The position numbers were made by a program, and so were the translations under genes. Below, one piece after another: positions 1,000 to 52,451 of a stretch of DNA of 64,000 bases. Within the stretch, counting starts at the first letter, position 1. Every line of letters begins with the position of its first letter. This stretch comes from an uncultured Acidobacteriaceae bacterium (GTDB lineage: Bacteria; Acidobacteriota; Terriglobia; Terriglobales; Acidobacteriaceae), in assembly GCA_963759285.1 (NCBI GenBank), contig CAVWYS010000005.1, forward strand, positions 3,522-67,521, given 5' to 3'. Under the pieces are notes generated by a model. It saw only the letters and a list, made by a program, of their open reading frames with translations. It was not told where the DNA came from and ran no database searches.

Positions 1000-1398
1000 A
1001 TGAGCCATCCCGACACCGCAACCCCAGCGGCCGTCCATCTCGATACCATCGGCCAGATCGCCATCACTGTCGATGATCTCGCCCGCGCCAGGGACTTCTA
1101 CCAGAACACCCTGGGCATGAAGTTCCTCTTCGCCGCCGGACGTCTCGCCTTCTTCCAGTGCGGTAGCATCCGCCTCATGCTCACCACGCCTGAGAAGCCG
1201 GAACCACGCGGCGGCACCATCCTCTACTACAAAGTCGACGACATTCACGTCGCCTGCGCTGCAATCAAGGCCCGCGGCATCGCGCTCCTCGAAGACCCGC
1301 ACCTCATCGCCAGAATGCCCGACCATGACCTGTGGATGGCGTCGCTCAAAGACCCCGCAGACAACATCCTCGGCATCATGTGCGAAGTCCGTACCTAG
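1000..1398 (+). CDS. VOC family (glyoxalase/bleomycin-resistance-like) protein
   Basis: IGQIAITVDDLARARDFYQNTLG ... LYYKVDDI ... LKDPADNILGI; RBS GGAAGGA upstream. Confidence 0.85.
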   Translation: MSHPDTATPAAVHLDTIGQIAITVDDLARARDFYQNTLGMKFLFAAGRLAFFQCGSIRLMLTTPEKPEPRGGTILYYKVDDIHVACAAIKARGIALLEDPHLIARMPDHDLWMASLKDPADNILGIMCEVRT

Positions 1399-1417
1399 CG
1401 CACAAAAGAGTTTTGAA

Positions 1418-1474
1418 AGGGCACGACTTTAGCCGTGCCGTAACCGCCAGAAAACATCAGAGGGCCTTTAGCCT
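1418..1474. repeat. Twin-hairpin REP-like element (family T), degenerate copy
   Basis: GCACGAC-TTTA-GCCGTGC, ~20-nt spacer, GGGCC-TTTA-GCC. Same layout as 8731-8794, 42061-42124 and 52389-52451. Confidence 0.7.
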
Positions 1475-1480
1475 TGCGCA

Positions 1481-2626
1481 CTAACGATCCTCCAGCGCAA
1501 GTACCGCATAGCTCGTCGCCGCATCGCTCATAAACATCCCTGCATCCGATTTCGGATCGCGGTTCTTGTTTAGCGACCACGCCGGCCACGCTCCGGTGTT
1601 TTTATCCTGATTGGCTTCAAGCCATGCAAGGCCACGCGCTACGTGCGGCTTCTTGTCCCCTGTTACCAGGCTCTCTTCAAGCACGAGCACCGCAAGTCCC
1701 GTCGCGTACCCATCCGATCGCGTTTCCAGCGGCGTGCCGTCCCGGCGCTTCCATGTCCCAAGATCCGTCAAACTCCAGCCCCCGTCCGGGTGCTGCAGCG
1801 CGTCCACTTGATCCACAAGCGCACGCATCTGGTCCAGCGTCAACAGGCCGGGAACATACTTCGCAGCCCACAACGCGACCATCTTGTTCACCAGTGGCTG
1901 TGCATCGTAGTGGCTCTGCAGATAGCCGCGCAACAAGGCCACGTTCGCCGAAATCTTCTTGTCGTTCCTGTACCCCTCGGGTGCGCTCCCCACTGCCATC
2001 GCCATCAACGCGGCCCAATGGTACTGCGATTCCTTTGACTCCCAGGGAGTGTAATCGAAGTTCTGCCAAACCCACGCGCCCGCATCCGGCCCAGACTTCG
2101 ACTGCAGTTCCCATGCATTGTCGAACGCCATCCGCGTCCGTTCGCTCAGATGCTCCTTCGGCGCGTCGTAACAAGCAAGAATGATGGCATTCAGCACGGC
2201 CTCCGCATTGCGCGACTCCACTTCCTTTCCCGCGCCGGAAACCGCATCGCTGTAGAAAGGCTGCACAATCTTCCAGTCGCGAACCCGCTTCTCCACGCTC
2301 GCCAGCATCACGAGCTCCTGCTCTGAAGGTTCACGCTCGCCCGATCGGCCGCGCAGCACTGGGCGTGCCATCGCGTAAGTCGCCTGCGTATGGCAACTCA
2401 CGCACAGCGTGCCATGATCCTTTTGCGCACGCTTCCACCCTTGCCACCACGTCTCTCTGCTATCGAGATACTGCGTAGCAGCCGCAGGATTCCAGCCAGG
2501 AGCCGTAACCGCGGGCTTGTCTGAAGCCTGCACATTCCCTCCCGGCACACGCATCACGCAGACACAGAACGCAACGCTCGCCGCGGCGACCAGCCTGGCC
2601 CCACCCCGCAGGAGTTTGTTTGTCAT
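1481..2626 (-). CDS. Exported prenyltransferase/squalene-oxidase-repeat (alpha/alpha barrel) protein with a CxxCH motif
   Basis: Signal-peptide-like N-terminus, QW-like motifs (LQHPDGGW, NQDKNTGAW), CVSCHT; no DXDD cyclase motif seen. Confidence 0.6.
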   Translation of the reverse strand: MTNKLLRGGARLVAAASVAFCVCVMRVPGGNVQASDKPAVTAPGWNPAAATQYLDSRETWWQGWKRAQKDHGTLCVSCHTQATYAMARPVLRGRSGEREPSEQELVMLASVEKRVRDWKIVQPFYSDAVSGAGKEVESRNAEAVLNAIILACYDAPKEHLSERTRMAFDNAWELQSKSGPDAGAWVWQNFDYTPWESKESQYHWAALMAMAVGSAPEGYRNDKKISANVALLRGYLQSHYDAQPLVNKMVALWAAKYVPGLLTLDQMRALVDQVDALQHPDGGWSLTDLGTWKRRDGTPLETRSDGYATGLAVLVLEESLVTGDKKPHVARGLAWLEANQDKNTGAWPAWSLNKNRDPKSDAGMFMSDAATSYAVLALEDR

Positions 2627-8617: not shown

Positions 8618-8730
8618 GAAGAAGATACCTCGTAATCGAGCGATTTACTTGATATCAGGATAAATGCTCGACATCTCCCGCCGCGTGGCACCCATCACAT
8701 CGCGGCACACAATGCAGAACCGAACACGGA

Positions 8731-8794
8731 GGGAGCAGCAGCCTTCAGGCTGCTTGACCGCATTCGCAGAGAGCGCCAGGCCTTTAGGCCTGGA
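8731..8794. repeat. Twin-hairpin REP-like element (family T)
   Basis: AGCAGCC-TTCA-GGCTGCT (8737-8754) and CCAGGCC-TTTA-GGCCTGG (8776-8793), both perfect 7-bp stems. Confidence 0.8.
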
Positions 8795-38345: not shown

Positions 38346-41231
38346 CTATTTCTCTGGTCCACTGGTCCACTTCAAGGTAAAGCTGTAGGTCGGATGGTAG
38401 TACTCACGCTGGATCGGATACTGCGATGATCCCTGGTAGAAGCCGAAGACCTCGTTATTCAGATCGAGTCCTGAGGCGGCCAACTTGAATCCCAACGGAA
38501 GCGTATAGCCGATCTCTGTGTCGTACTGGATGTGGCTGTAAAAGTAGTTGTCACCGGTTGGTCCCTTGGGACCGTTCGCGGTGGTGTCACCCGGAACCCC
38601 CTGCCAGTTGTAGGCATAGATGTTCGTCTCGTTATAGCTCACGCCTAACCGCACCGAGAGATTCTTCAAATCGTAGGTCGGGTTCAGGTTGAATGTGTTG
38701 GGCGCCTGGCGAGGAAGGGCGCGGCTGTCGGTTGCGGAGACATTATTGCCGCTGACCGGATCCTGGTAGACCCAGGAGTATTGCGCCTGCGAAAACGAAT
38801 AGCCGTAGTTCGCAAAAATCCCAAGACCGTGCATCGCTCCAGGAAGCGTCTTGAAGTGCTGCTCCCATGCCAGTTCAATGCCGCCGATGTGTGCTCCGCC
38901 GGAAAGGTTGATCGGCTGTGAGACTTTCCAGACCTGCGAGGGATATCCCGGAACCGTAAGTGTCGCAAGATGGAAAGTTGTCACGATCGGGTTGGATATC
39001 TGTTTATAGAAGAAACCACCCTGAATCACGCCTACGGTGTTGAAGTAGTGCTCGGCGAGAATGTCGAAGTTGTTGGCGCGCGTGGGCAGCAACGCCGAGT
39101 TGCCTTCGTTGATCTGATGCGAGGTTCCGTTGGGAGTGAATGTCGGCACAAGGTCACCATAATTCGGACGCGCAATCCCTCGTCCGTAAATGGCGCGGAT
39201 ATTCGTATTGTTATTGAAGTTGTAACGAATCTGCGCGTTCGGCATGAAATCGACATAGGAGGAAGTCTGTTTACCCAGACTGTCCGTCGGTGCTGAGAGG
39301 TTGTTGAAGTTGAAGTCCGAGATTGTCTCTTCCAGGCGAATTCCAGCTACGAAGCGAACACGCCCCACATCGATCGTATTCATGAAGTACTGCGCCGGAA
39401 TCAACTCATGGAGGTTGAATACGTATTGGTTTGCCGAACCGGCCGTGAACGCTCCGGCGTCGCTCTTCATCTCGGCCAGAATCTTGCCCCAGTTCGACAC
39501 ATGTCCTTTTGTGTAGTAATCGAACGATCCGTTATAGTAATCGGACGTGTGGTACGGATCCTCCACTGCCGCCAGGGTAATGGAACCATCGGAGCTGTAA
39601 CCCGTGTCCTCTACGTCGTCAAACTTGTGAGCGTTGCGCACCTTCGCGCCCGCCTGCCAGGTGCCCATGTGCCCATTCCAGTTATAACTCTGCGAAAGAT
39701 CGACCTGGCCCTGCAGATTGACCTGCGCAGAATGATCGTTGGTCAGGCTTACCGACTGCAACGAGTACTGGGTGGGGTCATAAATGTTGTCGCCCGGATT
39801 CGCGTAAGAGGTGATATTGAAGTGCGGCCGAAACGGATTCGAATTGTCCACACTGAACGACATCCCGGAAGGTCCCTGGAAACCGGCGTTGGGAAAGTTC
39901 TCGTTGTTGGCCCGCGAACGGGAGAACGCGATGGCTGTATTAAGCAGCCATGGCCCGAAGGCGCGCGAGTAGGTGGTTGAGATGTTGCCGATCTGATAAT
40001 CCGGGTTACGCGGAGAATCGGTAAACGTAAAGTTGTTTGCCGGATCAGAAGAGGTCGTCGGCGTATCGAAAGAGTTGATGTTCGGTGTGTAGATCCACTT
40101 TCCGCCGTAATCCTGGAATTCCGAGAACAGGCCGCGGATGAAGAGAACCGATCCCGGGCCAAATTGGTAGTCAGCGGTGCCGGCAAAACCGATGCGGCGC
40201 CGATCGTAGTGATACTCGCGATAGTCCGCCGTCGGCAACACCGCGTAGTACGGCCCGCTGCCAGGCTCGCCATTCAACTGCGTTGTACCGGGTGCGGGCT
40301 CGATGTCGTCAATGCCCCGCCCGTTGTAGTCGTAACTGGCGCCGAGGAAAAGTCCAAAGCGTTTGTTCGCACCAAAGCGCTGCCCGATTGCAGCCGTGAA
40401 CTGGTCGATGTTGCTCGAGCCGTCGGAGATGATTGGCGTGTGCCCGCCCATGACGGAGACGCTGTAAAAAGGCTGATCGGTAGCGGCCCGCGTGACCAGA
40501 TCCACGGTGCCGCCGATGGCGTCGCCATCCATGCTCGGCAATAGCGTCTTGCTCACCTGGATGGAACCCACCAGTGCCGCAGGAATGGTGTCGAGTTTGA
40601 TGTTGCGAACCGCCGACTCCGGCGCCGGAATGTTGATGCCGTTCACGGTCAGGTCGCTCAATCGCGGCTCGGTTCCGCGGATCTGCACATACTTGCCTTC
40701 GCCCTCGTCGCGCTCCAGCGTGACGCCCGGTAGCCGCCCCACTGAGTCGGCGATGTTGACGTTCGGCAGGCTGGTTATTACATCCTGGGGCAGAACCTCG
40801 AGGATATTGTCCGCCGACTGCTGGATGTTCATGGCTTCTACTTCGCCCTTTTCACGGCCGGCATATACTTGGACGTTTTCCTGGGTGGCGGAAATCCTCA
40901 TCACCGCATGTGTCTCGGCCGTGGAGCCCCCGTTGACAGTTACTGGCTGGGAGAAATCCTCAAATCCAAGCGCGGCAATCTTTACCGTGTACGATCCTGC
41001 GGCAAGATTGGTAAATAGAAAGTTGCCCTGGCCGTCCACGACCGCATTCTGCCCGCCCGGATCAACCGTGATACGCGCGCCCGGCAAAATACCTCCGCCG
41101 GCATCGGCAACCGTTCCGGCAAGGCTGCCGCGGGCTGGCGCGCTCTGCGCGGCAACTGGCATCGACAGTGAGAATACTGACAAGAGAGCGACGAAGAGAA
41201 AACTCTTCCATATCCAAGTGGACTTACGCAC
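38346..41231 (-). CDS. TonB-dependent outer-membrane receptor with an N-terminal carboxypeptidase-regulatory-like domain
   Basis: Signal peptide; plug VGRLPGVTLERDEGEGKYVQIRG...DGDAIGGTVDL; beta-barrel-like remainder; AAGGAGG RBS. Confidence 0.93.
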   Translation of the reverse strand: MRKSTWIWKSFLFVALLSVFSLSMPVAAQSAPARGSLAGTVADAGGGILPGARITVDPGGQNAVVDGQGNFLFTNLAAGSYTVKIAALGFEDFSQPVTVNGGSTAETHAVMRISATQENVQVYAGREKGEVEAMNIQQSADNILEVLPQDVITSLPNVNIADSVGRLPGVTLERDEGEGKYVQIRGTEPRLSDLTVNGINIPAPESAVRNIKLDTIPAALVGSIQVSKTLLPSMDGDAIGGTVDLVTRAATDQPFYSVSVMGGHTPIISDGSSNIDQFTAAIGQRFGANKRFGLFLGASYDYNGRGIDDIEPAPGTTQLNGEPGSGPYYAVLPTADYREYHYDRRRIGFAGTADYQFGPGSVLFIRGLFSEFQDYGGKWIYTPNINSFDTPTTSSDPANNFTFTDSPRNPDYQIGNISTTYSRAFGPWLLNTAIAFSRSRANNENFPNAGFQGPSGMSFSVDNSNPFRPHFNITSYANPGDNIYDPTQYSLQSVSLTNDHSAQVNLQGQVDLSQSYNWNGHMGTWQAGAKVRNAHKFDDVEDTGYSSDGSITLAAVEDPYHTSDYYNGSFDYYTKGHVSNWGKILAEMKSDAGAFTAGSANQYVFNLHELIPAQYFMNTIDVGRVRFVAGIRLEETISDFNFNNLSAPTDSLGKQTSSYVDFMPNAQIRYNFNNNTNIRAIYGRGIARPNYGDLVPTFTPNGTSHQINEGNSALLPTRANNFDILAEHYFNTVGVIQGGFFYKQISNPIVTTFHLATLTVPGYPSQVWKVSQPINLSGGAHIGGIELAWEQHFKTLPGAMHGLGIFANYGYSFSQAQYSWVYQDPVSGNNVSATDSRALPRQAPNTFNLNPTYDLKNLSVRLGVSYNETNIYAYNWQGVPGDTTANGPKGPTGDNYFYSHIQYDTEIGYTLPLGFKLAASGLDLNNEVFGFYQGSSQYPIQREYYHPTYSFTLKWTSGPEK

Positions 41232-41459: not shown

Positions 41460-41584
41460 AATTCTTCTCTGAGAGTTCATGATTGGCGGGTGCCCCTTGT
41501 TACACAAAGCTTGTAAATTGAGGCCTAATCGGGAATTGCATGCAAATTGCACCGCCGAAATCGCAATCCCGGTACAATAGAACC

Positions 41585-43177
41585 GTGAGCAAAAGTTCCC
41601 AACCCACGGCTCCCACCGTGGGCTTTGTTTCGTTAGGCTGCCCCAAGAATCTGGTCGACTCCGAAGTGATGATGGGGTTGCTGGACCGCGGTGGGGCGCG
41701 CCTGACTTCCCACCCCGAAGAGGCCGATATCCTCGTCGTCAATACCTGCAGCTTTATCGACACCGCCAAGCAGGAATCCGTGGACACCATCCTCGAAATG
41801 GCGCGCTTCAAAACCTCGGGCTCCGCCAAAAAGCTAATCGTCGCCGGTTGCCTCGTTGAGCGCTACCGCGACGAAATTCGCAAAAGTATTCCCGAAGTCG
41901 ATGCCGTCGTGGGTACAGGGGAGCTCGAATCAATTCTTGAGGCAGCAGGGATTGCTCCATCGCATTCCACCGCCCCCTCGCCCTTCAACATCCTCACCGC
42001 AAACAGCCACGCTGAGGTCCGCGCCGGACAAGAGTCTCTGTCGGGAAGCCACAAAGTGTCAGGGCGCGACTTCAGTCGTGCTGAAACAACGGCACAAATG
42101 ACGGGGGCTTTAGCCCCTGAGGGAAACTTCCGCCCTGAAGGCAATCTCCGCGAACAGCAAGGCCGCTTCAGCCGCGAAGACTGGCATGGCGCAGCGCACA
42201 TGCTGCCGACCTACCTCTATAACGAAAACACTCCGCGTTACATCTCGACCGGCAGAACATCGGCCTACATCAAGATCGCTGAGGGTTGCGACCATCCCTG
42301 CACCTTCTGCGTCATTCCCAATCTGCGCGGCAAGTTTCGCTCCCGCCGCTTCGAGTCCGTTGTGGCGGAAGCACAACAACTGGTCGCCGCCGGCGTACAG
42401 GAAATCACCCTCATCGGCCAGGACACGACCTGCTACGGCGAAGACCTGGGCATCAAAGACGGCCTGGCTACTCTGCTCGATTCCCTCGCCGGAATCCAAG
42501 GCCTGCGCTGGCTCCGCTTCCTGTATGCGTATCCCAATCGCATCACCGGCAAACTTCTCGACACCATCGCGAAGCACGATAACATTTGCAAATATCTCGA
42601 CGTGCCCCTGCAACACGCTTCACCCGACGTGCTCAAGCGAATGAAGCGTGGGGCCGGTGCCGACATTTTCCTCAAAACGCTCGAAAAAGTCCGCGCAATC
42701 GTGCCCGGAATAGCACTGCGCACTTCCTTTATCGTCGGTTTCCCCGGAGAGTCCTCCGTCGACTATGAAGTTTTGGAGCAGTTCATCAGCCACGCAAAAT
42801 TCGACTGGCTCGGCGTGTTCAATTACTCCGACGAAGAAGGTTCGAAAGCCCACGTACTCGACGCCAAGCTTCCAAAGCGCACCATCGAGTCCCGTAAGCG
42901 CAAGCTGATGAAGTTGCAGCAAAGGATCTCAAAGCGCGCCAAGCAGCAGTGGGTCGGTCGCGAACTCGTAGTTCTCGCCGAAGGCGAAAGCGAAGAGACT
43001 CCGCTACTTTGGGAAGGCCGTACCGAATTCCACGCTCCGGAAATCGACGGCAAGGTCTACATCAACGACTTCGGCGATCTTCAAGCCTTGGAAGCCGGAA
43101 AATTCTACCGCGCCCAGATCACCGAGGCCCATGACTACGACCTCGTCGCACGAATCATGTCGGGACCCCTTTCCTGA
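41585..43177 (+). CDS. rimO: Ribosomal protein S12 methylthiotransferase RimO, with an internal insertion
   Basis: VSLGCPKNLVDSE, NTCSFI, VAGCL, radical SAM CDHPCTFC, QDTTCYG, C-terminal TRAM-like GRTEFHAPEIDG; start GTG 41585. Confidence 0.97.
   Translation: MSKSSQPTAPTVGFVSLGCPKNLVDSEVMMGLLDRGGARLTSHPEEADILVVNTCSFIDTAKQESVDTILEMARFKTSGSAKKLIVAGCLVERYRDEIRKSIPEVDAVVGTGELESILEAAGIAPSHSTAPSPFNILTANSHAEVRAGQESLSGSHKVSGRDFSRAETTAQMTGALAPEGNFRPEGNLREQQGRFSREDWHGAAHMLPTYLYNENTPRYISTGRTSAYIKIAEGCDHPCTFCVIPNLRGKFRSRRFESVVAEAQQLVAAGVQEITLIGQDTTCYGEDLGIKDGLATLLDSLAGIQGLRWLRFLYAYPNRITGKLLDTIAKHDNICKYLDVPLQHASPDVLKRMKRGAGADIFLKTLEKVRAIVPGIALRTSFIVGFPGESSVDYEVLEQFISHAKFDWLGVFNYSDEEGSKAHVLDAKLPKRTIESRKRKLMKLQQRISKRAKQQWVGRELVVLAEGESEETPLLWEGRTEFHAPEIDGKVYINDFGDLQALEAGKFYRAQITEAHDYDLVARIMSGPLS
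42059..42124. repeat. Intragenic twin-hairpin REP-like element (family T), in frame within rimO
   Basis: GCGCGAC-TTCA-GTCGTGC ... GGGGC-TTTA-GCCCC; translated as SGRDFSRAETTAQMTGALAPEG. Confidence 0.8.
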
Positions 43178-52370: not shown

Positions 52371-52388
52371 ACTTCATGCAATGATTCG

Positions 52389-52451
52389 GAGGGAGCAGTG
52401 GCCTTCAGGCCACTGGATACCAACAATTAAGTTTCTGGCATTTAGGCCCGG
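52389..52451. repeat. Twin-hairpin REP-like element (family T)
   Basis: GAGGGAG-CAGTGGCC-TTCA-GGCCACTG (perfect 8 bp) ... GGCA-TTTA-GGCCCGG; same 5' flank as 8731. Confidence 0.75.

Follow-up and report, generated by a model that had tools for sequence, protein, structure and literature searches.

Introduction

Palindromic repeats that occur both between genes and in frame inside conserved genes have been described as Rickettsia palindromic elements (RPEs; Ogata et al. 2000, 2002, as summarised in PMC10969869). Repetitive extragenic palindromes (REPs) likewise occur within genes of various species from several phyla, where they frequently form dimers that encode 20-30 residues; among the genes decorated in this way are those for tRNA synthetases and for subunits of excinuclease ABC (Di Nocera et al. 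2013, PMC3733652). The same study notes that G.T pairs are frequent in stems and that sites downstream of genes are preferred; the REP superfamilies that it defines bear a GTAG or CGTC tag and are associated with RAYT (REP-associated tyrosine transposase) or TIRYT genes, and it also covers TIR (terminal inverted repeat) repeats and TIRYT genes of Koribacter versatilis (PMC3733652). Here, a palindromic repeat inside a conserved gene is described from a stretch of 64,000 nucleotides of an uncultured Acidobacteriaceae bacterium (hereafter the window; C5:3522-67521 of the 5.6-Mb assembly, G000). In this window, rimO, the gene for the ribosomal protein S12 methylthiotransferase, contains in frame one copy of an interspersed, non-autonomous two-hairpin repeat family of Terriglobia. 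Full-text searches of the literature returned no account of the family, nor any of repeats inside genes of Terriglobia.

A two-hairpin repeat inside rimO

Compared with the empty allele, which reads K-TE-F, the copy in rimO is an insertion of 72 nt with a net gain of 22 residues (Table 1). The element-encoded residues are approximately 173-197 of RimO, between the UPF0004 and Radical_SAM domains, and the peptide includes ...DFSR / AETTAQMTGALAPEGNFRPEGNLR.... The initial annotation of the window, made from the letters alone, had described two hairpins with a 19-nt spacer inside rimO, and the sequence was found exactly as described. It had also matched this copy over its full length to an intergenic element at 1418, which is confirmed; the intergenic copy spans 1405-1482 and occupies the 82-nt gap between the convergent genes 1000-1398 (+) and 1481-2626 (-). 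The stems in rimO had been thought to be better paired than those of the intergenic copy, and this agrees with folding as sense RNA, which gives -29.7 kcal/mol (z -2.9) for the rimO copy and -16.8 kcal/mol (z -0.1) for the intergenic one. A degenerate hairpin-1 pattern matches two places in the window, namely these two copies, against 0.01 expected from shuffles. Chance similarity between the copies is ruled out by this expectation and by the covariation given below (0/500 shuffles). Two other elements, at 8731 and 52389, had been listed as having the same layout. The two-hairpin TTCA/TTTA design is indeed common to them, but they belong to a different, sister subfamily, whose 5' arm is CGGAGGGAG (hereafter the CGGAGGGAG subfamily). 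A scan of the window against Rfam at the gathering threshold returned the SRP RNA as its sole match, and none at the rimO copy or the intergenic copy at 1405-1482.

The whole assembly was searched with a fuzzy pattern, which returned approximately 40 copies of hairpin 1, and with a covariance model built from 24 full copies, with a threshold of E<=0.01 and 150 of the 1380 first-look candidates scored. At this setting, at least 65 copies of the element are present in G000, which is towards the lower limit of what is usual for REPs; 59 of the 65 lie outside called genes. The model matches the rimO copy over 42048-42125 with 72 bits, and, being a model of the main subfamily, it did not list the two CGGAGGGAG copies of the window among the candidates scored. 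The family unit is approximately 75 nt long and consists of a 5' arm (g.ttTgTGtcA or TTTTGAAA), hairpin 1 (22 nt, with a stem of 8-9 bp and a TTYA loop, CTTYAG), a variable, A-rich spacer of 19-24 nt in nearly all copies, hairpin 2 (GGGGC-TTTA-GCCCC, 4-6 bp, 14-16 nt) and a tail (CTGAGGGA; consensus CTGAGGga). The consensus reads g.ttTgTGtcA-GGGCACGAC...GTCGTGCC and GGGGCTTTAGCCCC-TGAGGga. Among the 24 genomic copies, 98% of the cells in hairpin 1 and 83% of those in hairpin 2 are paired, and 7 of the 13 pairs are altered on both sides, a value that was reached by none of 500 shuffles. In a logo of 128 copies, conservation extends approximately 10 nt 5' of hairpin 1 and, on the 3' side, approximately 6 nt past hairpin 2. 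When one genome per species was scanned with an exact pattern, at least 120 loci were obtained, nearly all of them in Terriglobia, with Terracidiphilus, Acidobacteriaceae, Ca. Sulfotelmatobacter and Korobacteraceae among the matches listed, and the exact hairpin sequences are kept across Terriglobia families.

The host gene and its linker

Three Pfam domains are present in RimO: UPF0004 (27-125), Radical_SAM (245-412) and TRAM_2 (472-539). The CxxxCxxC motif is present as well, and close homologues carry the name RimO in their source annotation. The known target of RimO is the conserved aspartate of S12. The position first proposed for the insert, in frame in the linker between UPF0004 and the radical-SAM domain, is borne out by these matches. 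In comparison with four relatives that have a copy of the same length, the folded domains evolve with a dN/dS of 0.046-0.069 at a dS of 0.65-1.12. Such strong purifying selection on the folded domains strongly implies that rimO functions with its passenger, and the intact, strongly constrained open reading frame likewise strongly implies that the element is translated within RimO. The insert itself has a dN of 0.25-0.40, which is 5-8 times that of the domains.

The inter-domain linker is predicted to be disordered. In an AlphaFold2 model based on an alignment of 80 sequences, residues 141-230 score below 50 in pLDDT and are nearly devoid of secondary structure, and the three domains are modelled at moderate to high confidence. 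This linker segment of approximately 90 residues is restricted to the genus, and the neighbouring family is without it. Of the sense frames of hairpin 2 and the tail, the one that reads GALAPEG is the only one without a stop, and therefore all sense copies in coding sequences use that frame. Just 3' of the element, at 42128-42185 of the window (FRPEGNLREQQGRFSRED), the linker includes two sequences, CCTGAAGG and GGCCGCTTCAGCCGCG, that look like decayed hairpins with a CTTCAG loop, and the peptide GRFSRE from this region is similar to GHDFSRA. Speculatively, the whole extra linker of RimO may be built from older, decayed insertions.

Repeated occupation of one site

Among 16 genomes of the genus, the element is found between THK and FRPEG of RimO in 6 and is absent from 10, and carriers and empty genomes are interleaved on the RimO tree. 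It was also absent from all 11 full-length RimO sequences sampled from another family. The initial annotation had expected the segment to be lacking in sister species, which holds for many congeners and for these 11 sequences. The site was further surveyed in 117 parsed representatives of RimO clusters at an identity of at least 78%. The element is present in 58 of these clusters, the site is empty (K-TE-F) in 42, and in the remaining 17 it holds a short segment; some of these segments can be recognised as remnants of the element, for example ...TSAPEVSF. Three subfamilies occupy the site, reading GHDFSRA, GTGFSPY and GQGFSPD. Two or three hairpin-1 modules are present in 10 of the 58 element-bearing clusters, and the element is in reverse orientation in 2. 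One antisense copy, one tandem pair and one remnant were each confirmed in a check of the DNA of three clusters. In dozens of independent assemblies, the in-frame elements at this site are always a multiple of three in length and free of stops.

The subfamilies also differ at the nucleotide level. The rimO copies of G006, of G014 and G002, and of G000, G001 and G017 have subfamily-specific 5' arms and stems. The stem variant in rimO of G006 is a multicopy subfamily in G006, G001, G014 and G017, with no close match in G000, and the site in G014 and G002 is occupied by the CGGAGGGAG subfamily. Different subfamilies at one position, together with reversed copies, argue for repeated insertion or replacement and against a single in-place event; on this comparison of sequences, the rimO linker site is a landing pad that has been used recurrently rather than once. 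In 5 of the 6 genus genomes, the same 9 nt separate hairpin 2 from TTCCGCCC at the 3' junction, which suggests that new modules may join beside the resident hairpin 2, as in REP clusters.

Two observations were made in other genomes at this linker. In G003, one of the ten genomes counted as lacking the element, the short rimO insert starts with CACGAAGCG, possibly what is left of the 5' arm of the element. In G017 (locus L015), the rimO linker additionally has an in-frame palindromic repeat of another, unrelated kind (LGAPHLDSEMWE, GTGCCCCACATCTCGATTCTGAGATGTGGGA) just upstream of the two-hairpin element.

Conserved stems and a variable spacer

In four relatives (P0002, P0009, P0013 and P0015), the rimO coding sequence is 81-86% identical to that of G000 and contains a 72-nt copy with the same junctions. 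These copies are most simply read as orthologues of the G000 copy. Three of the four match the family consensus exactly in hairpin 1 and retain an intact hairpin 2, and P0015 is without both stems; the stems of G000 differ from the consensus by two substitutions, both of which yield G.U pairs. The spacer of approximately 20 nt is 45-55% identical among the same-site copies, which is approximately the expectation from dS for free sites. In a hand count over the four intact copies, 2 of 28 stem positions vary, as opposed to roughly 16-17 of 20 spacer positions, and 7 of the 8 third-codon positions within the stems are unchanged. In 12 rimO-resident copies from different species, 96% of the cells are paired and 7 of the 8 pairs of hairpin 1 are altered on both sides (0/500 shuffles). 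With stems nearly invariant at synonymous sites next to a scrambled spacer, it is the nucleotide sequence of the stems that is constrained, rather than the encoded peptide. These comparisons support either selection on the fold or homogenisation with the copies elsewhere in the genome. The initial annotation had offered recent arrival or selection on the fold as alternatives. Recent arrival does not agree with same-length copies at a dS of 0.65-1.1 and with half of the closest RimO clusters being occupied, while the second alternative is in line with the constraint on stem nucleotides.

In-frame copies in other genes

Called genes contain six of the 65 copies in G000, each of them in sense orientation. 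Five are located inside well-supported proteins, each between Pfam domains (Table 1); the remaining one precedes the likely start of a CMD-family protein. Another copy, intergenic by the gene calls, is located upstream of the likely start of a DivIC-like protein, within a longer stop-to-stop frame. Besides rimO, four other genes of G000 thus carry in-frame copies. In other Terriglobia, AlaS has two tandem in-frame copies, MoaA an antisense one and an ArsR-methyltransferase fusion another; by reading, without a Pfam check, further ones were noted in an Lhr-like helicase and an RluB-like protein. The antisense frame of the element reads PQGLKP...GTAEAVPF.

Further inserts were also observed inside these hosts. 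In the MtaB-like paralogue of G001, a copy of the GGTACGGGC subfamily (G001:C3:56171-56193) lies between the UPF0004 and radical-SAM matches. The S9 peptidase of G000 also holds in-frame inserts from other repeat families (GAPFMAQSYRDMSG, GAPFMAAALSLSRMG and VPHVPLGTWETSK), as does UvrC (KGAPGPSPLGTGDP). Several repeat families enter coding sequence in G000.

Table 1. Features of the two-hairpin repeat and its hosts; plain numbers are positions in the window, and C3, C4 and C6 refer to the assembly G000
Feature	Position	Strand	Evidence or remark
rimO, ribosomal protein S12 methylthiotransferase, 545 aa, intact open reading frame	41540..43177	+	Pfam domains, named homologues
Complete 72-nt two-hairpin element copy	42056..42127	+	read in frame as VSGRDFSRAETTAQMTGALAPEGN
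Element 5' arm remnant GTGTCA (family consensus g.ttTgTGtcA)	42056..42061	+	flank logo, 128 copies, other genomes
Hairpin 1: GGGCGCGAC / TTCA loop / GTCGTGCTG	42062..42083	+	6 Watson-Crick and 2 G.U pairs, sense strand
Variable A-rich spacer, 19 nt	42084..42102	+	unconserved between orthologous copies
Hairpin 2: GGGGGC / TTTA loop / GCCCCT	42103..42118	+	encodes GALAP
Element 3' tail: GAGGGA (family consensus CTGAGGga), then AAC	42119..42127	+	flank logo
Intergenic copy, same subfamily as rimO copy	1405..1482	+	hairpin 1 has an A.C mismatch
CGGAGGGAG-subfamily copy	8727..8793	+	two-hairpin TTCA/TTTA design, shared with rimO copy
Second CGGAGGGAG-subfamily copy	52387..52451	+	TTCA/TTTA design; hairpin 2 degraded
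RimO			in-frame copy, UPF0004 to radical-SAM linker
MtaB-like methylthiotransferase	C4:352230-353720	-	composite variant (SVSGHDSGNPRNGSS...GASAPP), linker homologous to that of RimO
UvrC	C3:74847-76958	+	in-frame copy between domains
S9 peptidase	C6:239868-242414	-	copy between propeller and catalytic domain
CCG/4Fe-4S oxidoreductase (CCG Fe-S protein)	G000		in-frame copy between domains

Strand specificity and polarity

Changes on one side of a stem mostly result in G.T pairs on the strand that reads GGGCAC... The ratio of G.T to A.C in G000 is 15:7 as counted, and approximately 15:3 after mis-registered composite copies were set aside by eye; at two positions that were left free in the pattern applied to other genomes it is 17:1 (p=1.4e-4). 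The local mutational bias predicts the opposite of this excess of G.T. The folded (sense) strand is also the C-rich strand in 62 of the 65 copies in G000 (skew in windows of 10-20 kb; p ~1e-15). The complete genome G007 agrees, with 13 of 14 copies, and among the copies in 8-kb loci from other genomes the fraction is 85 of 122. Genes are without such a strand bias (49.9%). The polarity of the element is tied to the local GC skew. At one rimO locus with an antisense copy (L155), the GC skew is approximately 0 and not clearly inverted. Between co-directional genes, 25 copies are in sense and 16 in antisense orientation; this gene-relative orientation is weak, and an account of the strand bias by RNA only is therefore not favoured. 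Folding on one strand, together with the polarity, indicates that the element is recognised or selected as a single strand, either single-stranded DNA (ssDNA) or RNA, and of these DNA seems more likely than RNA.

Strand asymmetry in G000 is very strong, with a mean |GC skew| of 0.09 in 10-kb windows. On the plus strand of the window, the skew at third codon positions (GC3 skew) is -0.2 to -0.6 regardless of gene orientation, and along G000 blocks that are tens to hundreds of kb long alternate in the sign of the skew, which is also observed in G007 (loci L162-L175). A two-replichore polarity was considered for G007 and rejected; copy orientation and local skew switch sign many times and do not follow dnaA at 5.32 Mb. 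Nearly all high-copy 14-mers of G000, which belong to several unrelated REP-like families, are oriented near-absolutely to the local GC skew, with AGGGACATAGGGAC at 42:1, CATGAATGGGGCAC at 41:0 and CGGGTGCCCCATCC at 0:29 as examples. The polarity is a general property of the repeats of G000, beyond the two-hairpin family. Within the window, the gene for a TonB-dependent receptor at 38346-41231 (-) has a GC3 skew opposite in sign to that of all its neighbours, which suggests a recent inversion or acquisition.

Origin and persistence of the rimO copy

It is quite probable that the insert is a mobile two-hairpin repeat that is tolerated as an in-frame passenger in the RimO linker, at a site that has been occupied repeatedly. 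A copy would have landed in the genus-specific disordered linker and would persist because its sense frame is free of stops and the enzyme is undisturbed, being read through as 24 extra residues. In relatives, the same linker position would have been taken repeatedly, by different subfamilies and in both orientations, and the copies there would have multiplied in tandem, decayed and been lost. The hairpins would be conserved rather than the peptide; since they fold on one strand, which is C-rich nearly everywhere, the element would be recognised as a single strand by some factor. We infer a near-neutral peptide and mobilisation via a single-stranded intermediate. Several points weigh against a mobile, tolerated passenger. 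The conservation of stems at synonymous sites across a dS of approximately 1 is unexpected for an inert passenger and would need host-level selection or repeated gene conversion or replacement. Neither terminal inverted repeats nor a target duplication nor a flanking target motif was found in the logo of 128 copies, so that mobility is deduced only from copy number, from near-identical spacers in some pairs and from filled versus empty sites. No mobilising enzyme was identified in G000, where none of the four PF01797 (Y1 HUH) genes is flanked by an inverted pair of the element. In addition, the active strand of IS200/IS605 elements is on the G-rich, lagging-template strand, which is opposite to the C-rich folded strand of the two-hairpin element, and the model of these elements is therefore not directly transferable.

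The protected stems could also point to an exapted element, in which the hairpins (as mRNA or ssDNA) or the peptide serve RimO or the host and are kept by host-level selection, for example through ribosome pausing at the domain boundary, with effects on co-translational folding or Fe-S cluster loading, or as a binding site for a host factor. Such a role would fit stems that are kept, synonymous positions included, among same-site copies at a dS of 0.65-1.1, as well as exact hairpin sequences kept across families and a G.T bias that marks one strand as folded. All five coding copies in G000 are at domain boundaries, but this position is equally explained by tolerance, and the dN of the insert, at 5-8 times that of the domains, speaks against such a role. 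The element is also absent from 42 of 117 close RimO clusters and from the 11 full-length sequences sampled from the other family, the same-site copy of P0015 and several remnants have decayed, and the subfamilies, tandem arrays and both orientations at the site look like turnover and not like a fixed function; exaptation is thus rather doubtful. A wider proposal is that the hairpins are host-relevant, strand-specific nucleic-acid signals kept by selection inside coding sequence, that the Terriglobia repeats form a polar genome-structuring system (in replication, repair or segregation), and that the rimO and mtaB linkers are targeted and not merely tolerant. Stem invariance at synonymous sites over a dS of approximately 1 would fit this proposal, as would the nearly exceptionless orientation of this and almost every other repeat family of G000 to the local strand asymmetry, but it is unlikely. 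A single ancient insertion in the ancestor of the genus, with the present forms arising by compensatory substitution and loss and without re-insertion, would account for the constant 9-nt 3' junction to TTCCGCCC and for the five 72-nt copies that are best read as orthologues. It is very improbable in view of the subfamily-specific 5' arms and stems of the G006, G014/G002 and G000/G001/G017 copies, of G006-type and CGGAGGGAG-type elements that also exist elsewhere as separate copies, of two RimO clusters with a reversed element, of tandem arrays at the site, and of element-bearing and empty genomes that are interleaved on the tree. Evolution in place from one insertion was likewise judged unlikely given the multicopy G006-type subfamily, the antisense copy and the tandem pair. 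That rimO is broken or the segment lies outside the protein, whether through pseudogenisation, gene splitting or misassembly at a repeat, is hardly credible: the 545-aa frame is intact with three domains and CxxxCxxC, dN/dS is approximately 0.05, and in-frame, stop-free elements with lengths in multiples of three recur in dozens of independent assemblies. The tolerated, repeatedly inserted repeat remains the preferred explanation.

Implications

The two-hairpin family is a well-documented case, outside Rickettsia and Proteobacteria, of palindromic repeats in frame in conserved enzymes. Its comparative depth comes from one codon-level site in rimO, with empty, filled, tandem, inverted and decayed states over more than 100 lineages. 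This site is a natural experiment on target choice or survival, on the rate of decay, and on the protection of stems by selection versus conversion. In protein annotation and structure prediction for Terriglobia, disordered inserts derived from repeats should be expected, reading GHDFSRA...GALAPE or, in antisense, PQGLKP...GTAEAVPF. A separate lead on how genomes are organised in Terriglobia is the near-absolute polarity of all repeat families against a GC skew that is both strong and patchy.

Comparison with known systems

The two-hairpin family resembles the RPEs in being both intergenic and in frame in unrelated housekeeping genes, in encoding a conserved peptide and in being compatible with the fold of the host, as PMC10969869 describes for RPEs. 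In G000, the in-frame copies are in five genes, all between Pfam domains, and the RimO segment is predicted to be disordered. By the same account, RPEs are approximately 100-150 bp long and restricted to Rickettsia, whereas the Terriglobia family is approximately 75 nt long and has two separate hairpins, so that the two are set apart by taxon, length and architecture. The resemblance would thus be a functional one only. Reoccupation of a single codon-level site and strand polarity are features of the Terriglobia family that do not appear in the available part of the RPE account (PMC10969869).

The initial annotation had called the element a REP. This label fits a short, imperfect, GC-rich palindrome (20-40 bp) that is interspersed in at least 65 copies, mostly between genes, and the uvrC and alaS hosts parallel the excinuclease and tRNA synthetase hosts named in the intragenic-REP study. 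The label does not fit in that a GTAG or CGTC tag is found in neither strand of the two-hairpin consensus and that no RAYT gene of G000 is flanked by the element. Two of the four Y1 HUH genes of G000 are flanked by other repeat families. One RAYT-like Y1 HUH gene, at C6:114342-114777, has a different palindrome on both sides (CCCCACTCATGCGC...GCGCATGAGTGGGG) and is possibly a REPtron for another family; a truncated hairpin-1 copy of the two-hairpin family was observed approximately 110 nt upstream of this gene. With the REP/BIME-RAYT and REPIN systems, the family has in common GC-rich hairpins in tens to hundreds of copies, subfamilies, clusters and tandems, as well as compensatory stem evolution and long vertical persistence (PMC2817692, PMC3116915). 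REPINs are inverted pairs of the same REP, in contrast to the Terriglobia element, which has two different hairpins in direct order with a fixed polarity.

Miniature inverted-repeat transposable elements are defined by terminal inverted repeats and target-site duplications; the ends of the Terriglobia element are not inverted copies of each other, and no duplicated flank was seen in 128 copies. Palindrome-associated elements of the IS200/IS605 type are similar in having two subterminal hairpins with related loops, no terminal inverted repeats or target-site duplications, and strand-specific folding, and also in an orientation that is coupled to strand asymmetry and in repeated insertion at one site (PMC6006769). 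A fixed flanking tetra- or pentanucleotide was not found in the 128 copies, nor was a TnpA with matching end hairpins in G000, and the relation to IS200/IS605 would be a lead and not a membership. In-frame palindromic repeats in conserved genes are already known from RPEs and intragenic REPs, and the two-hairpin family is a further case. What goes beyond routine is the recurrent use of the rimO site and of the paralogous linker, the protection of stems at the nucleotide level within coding sequence, and the strong polarity that the repeat families of the genome have in common.

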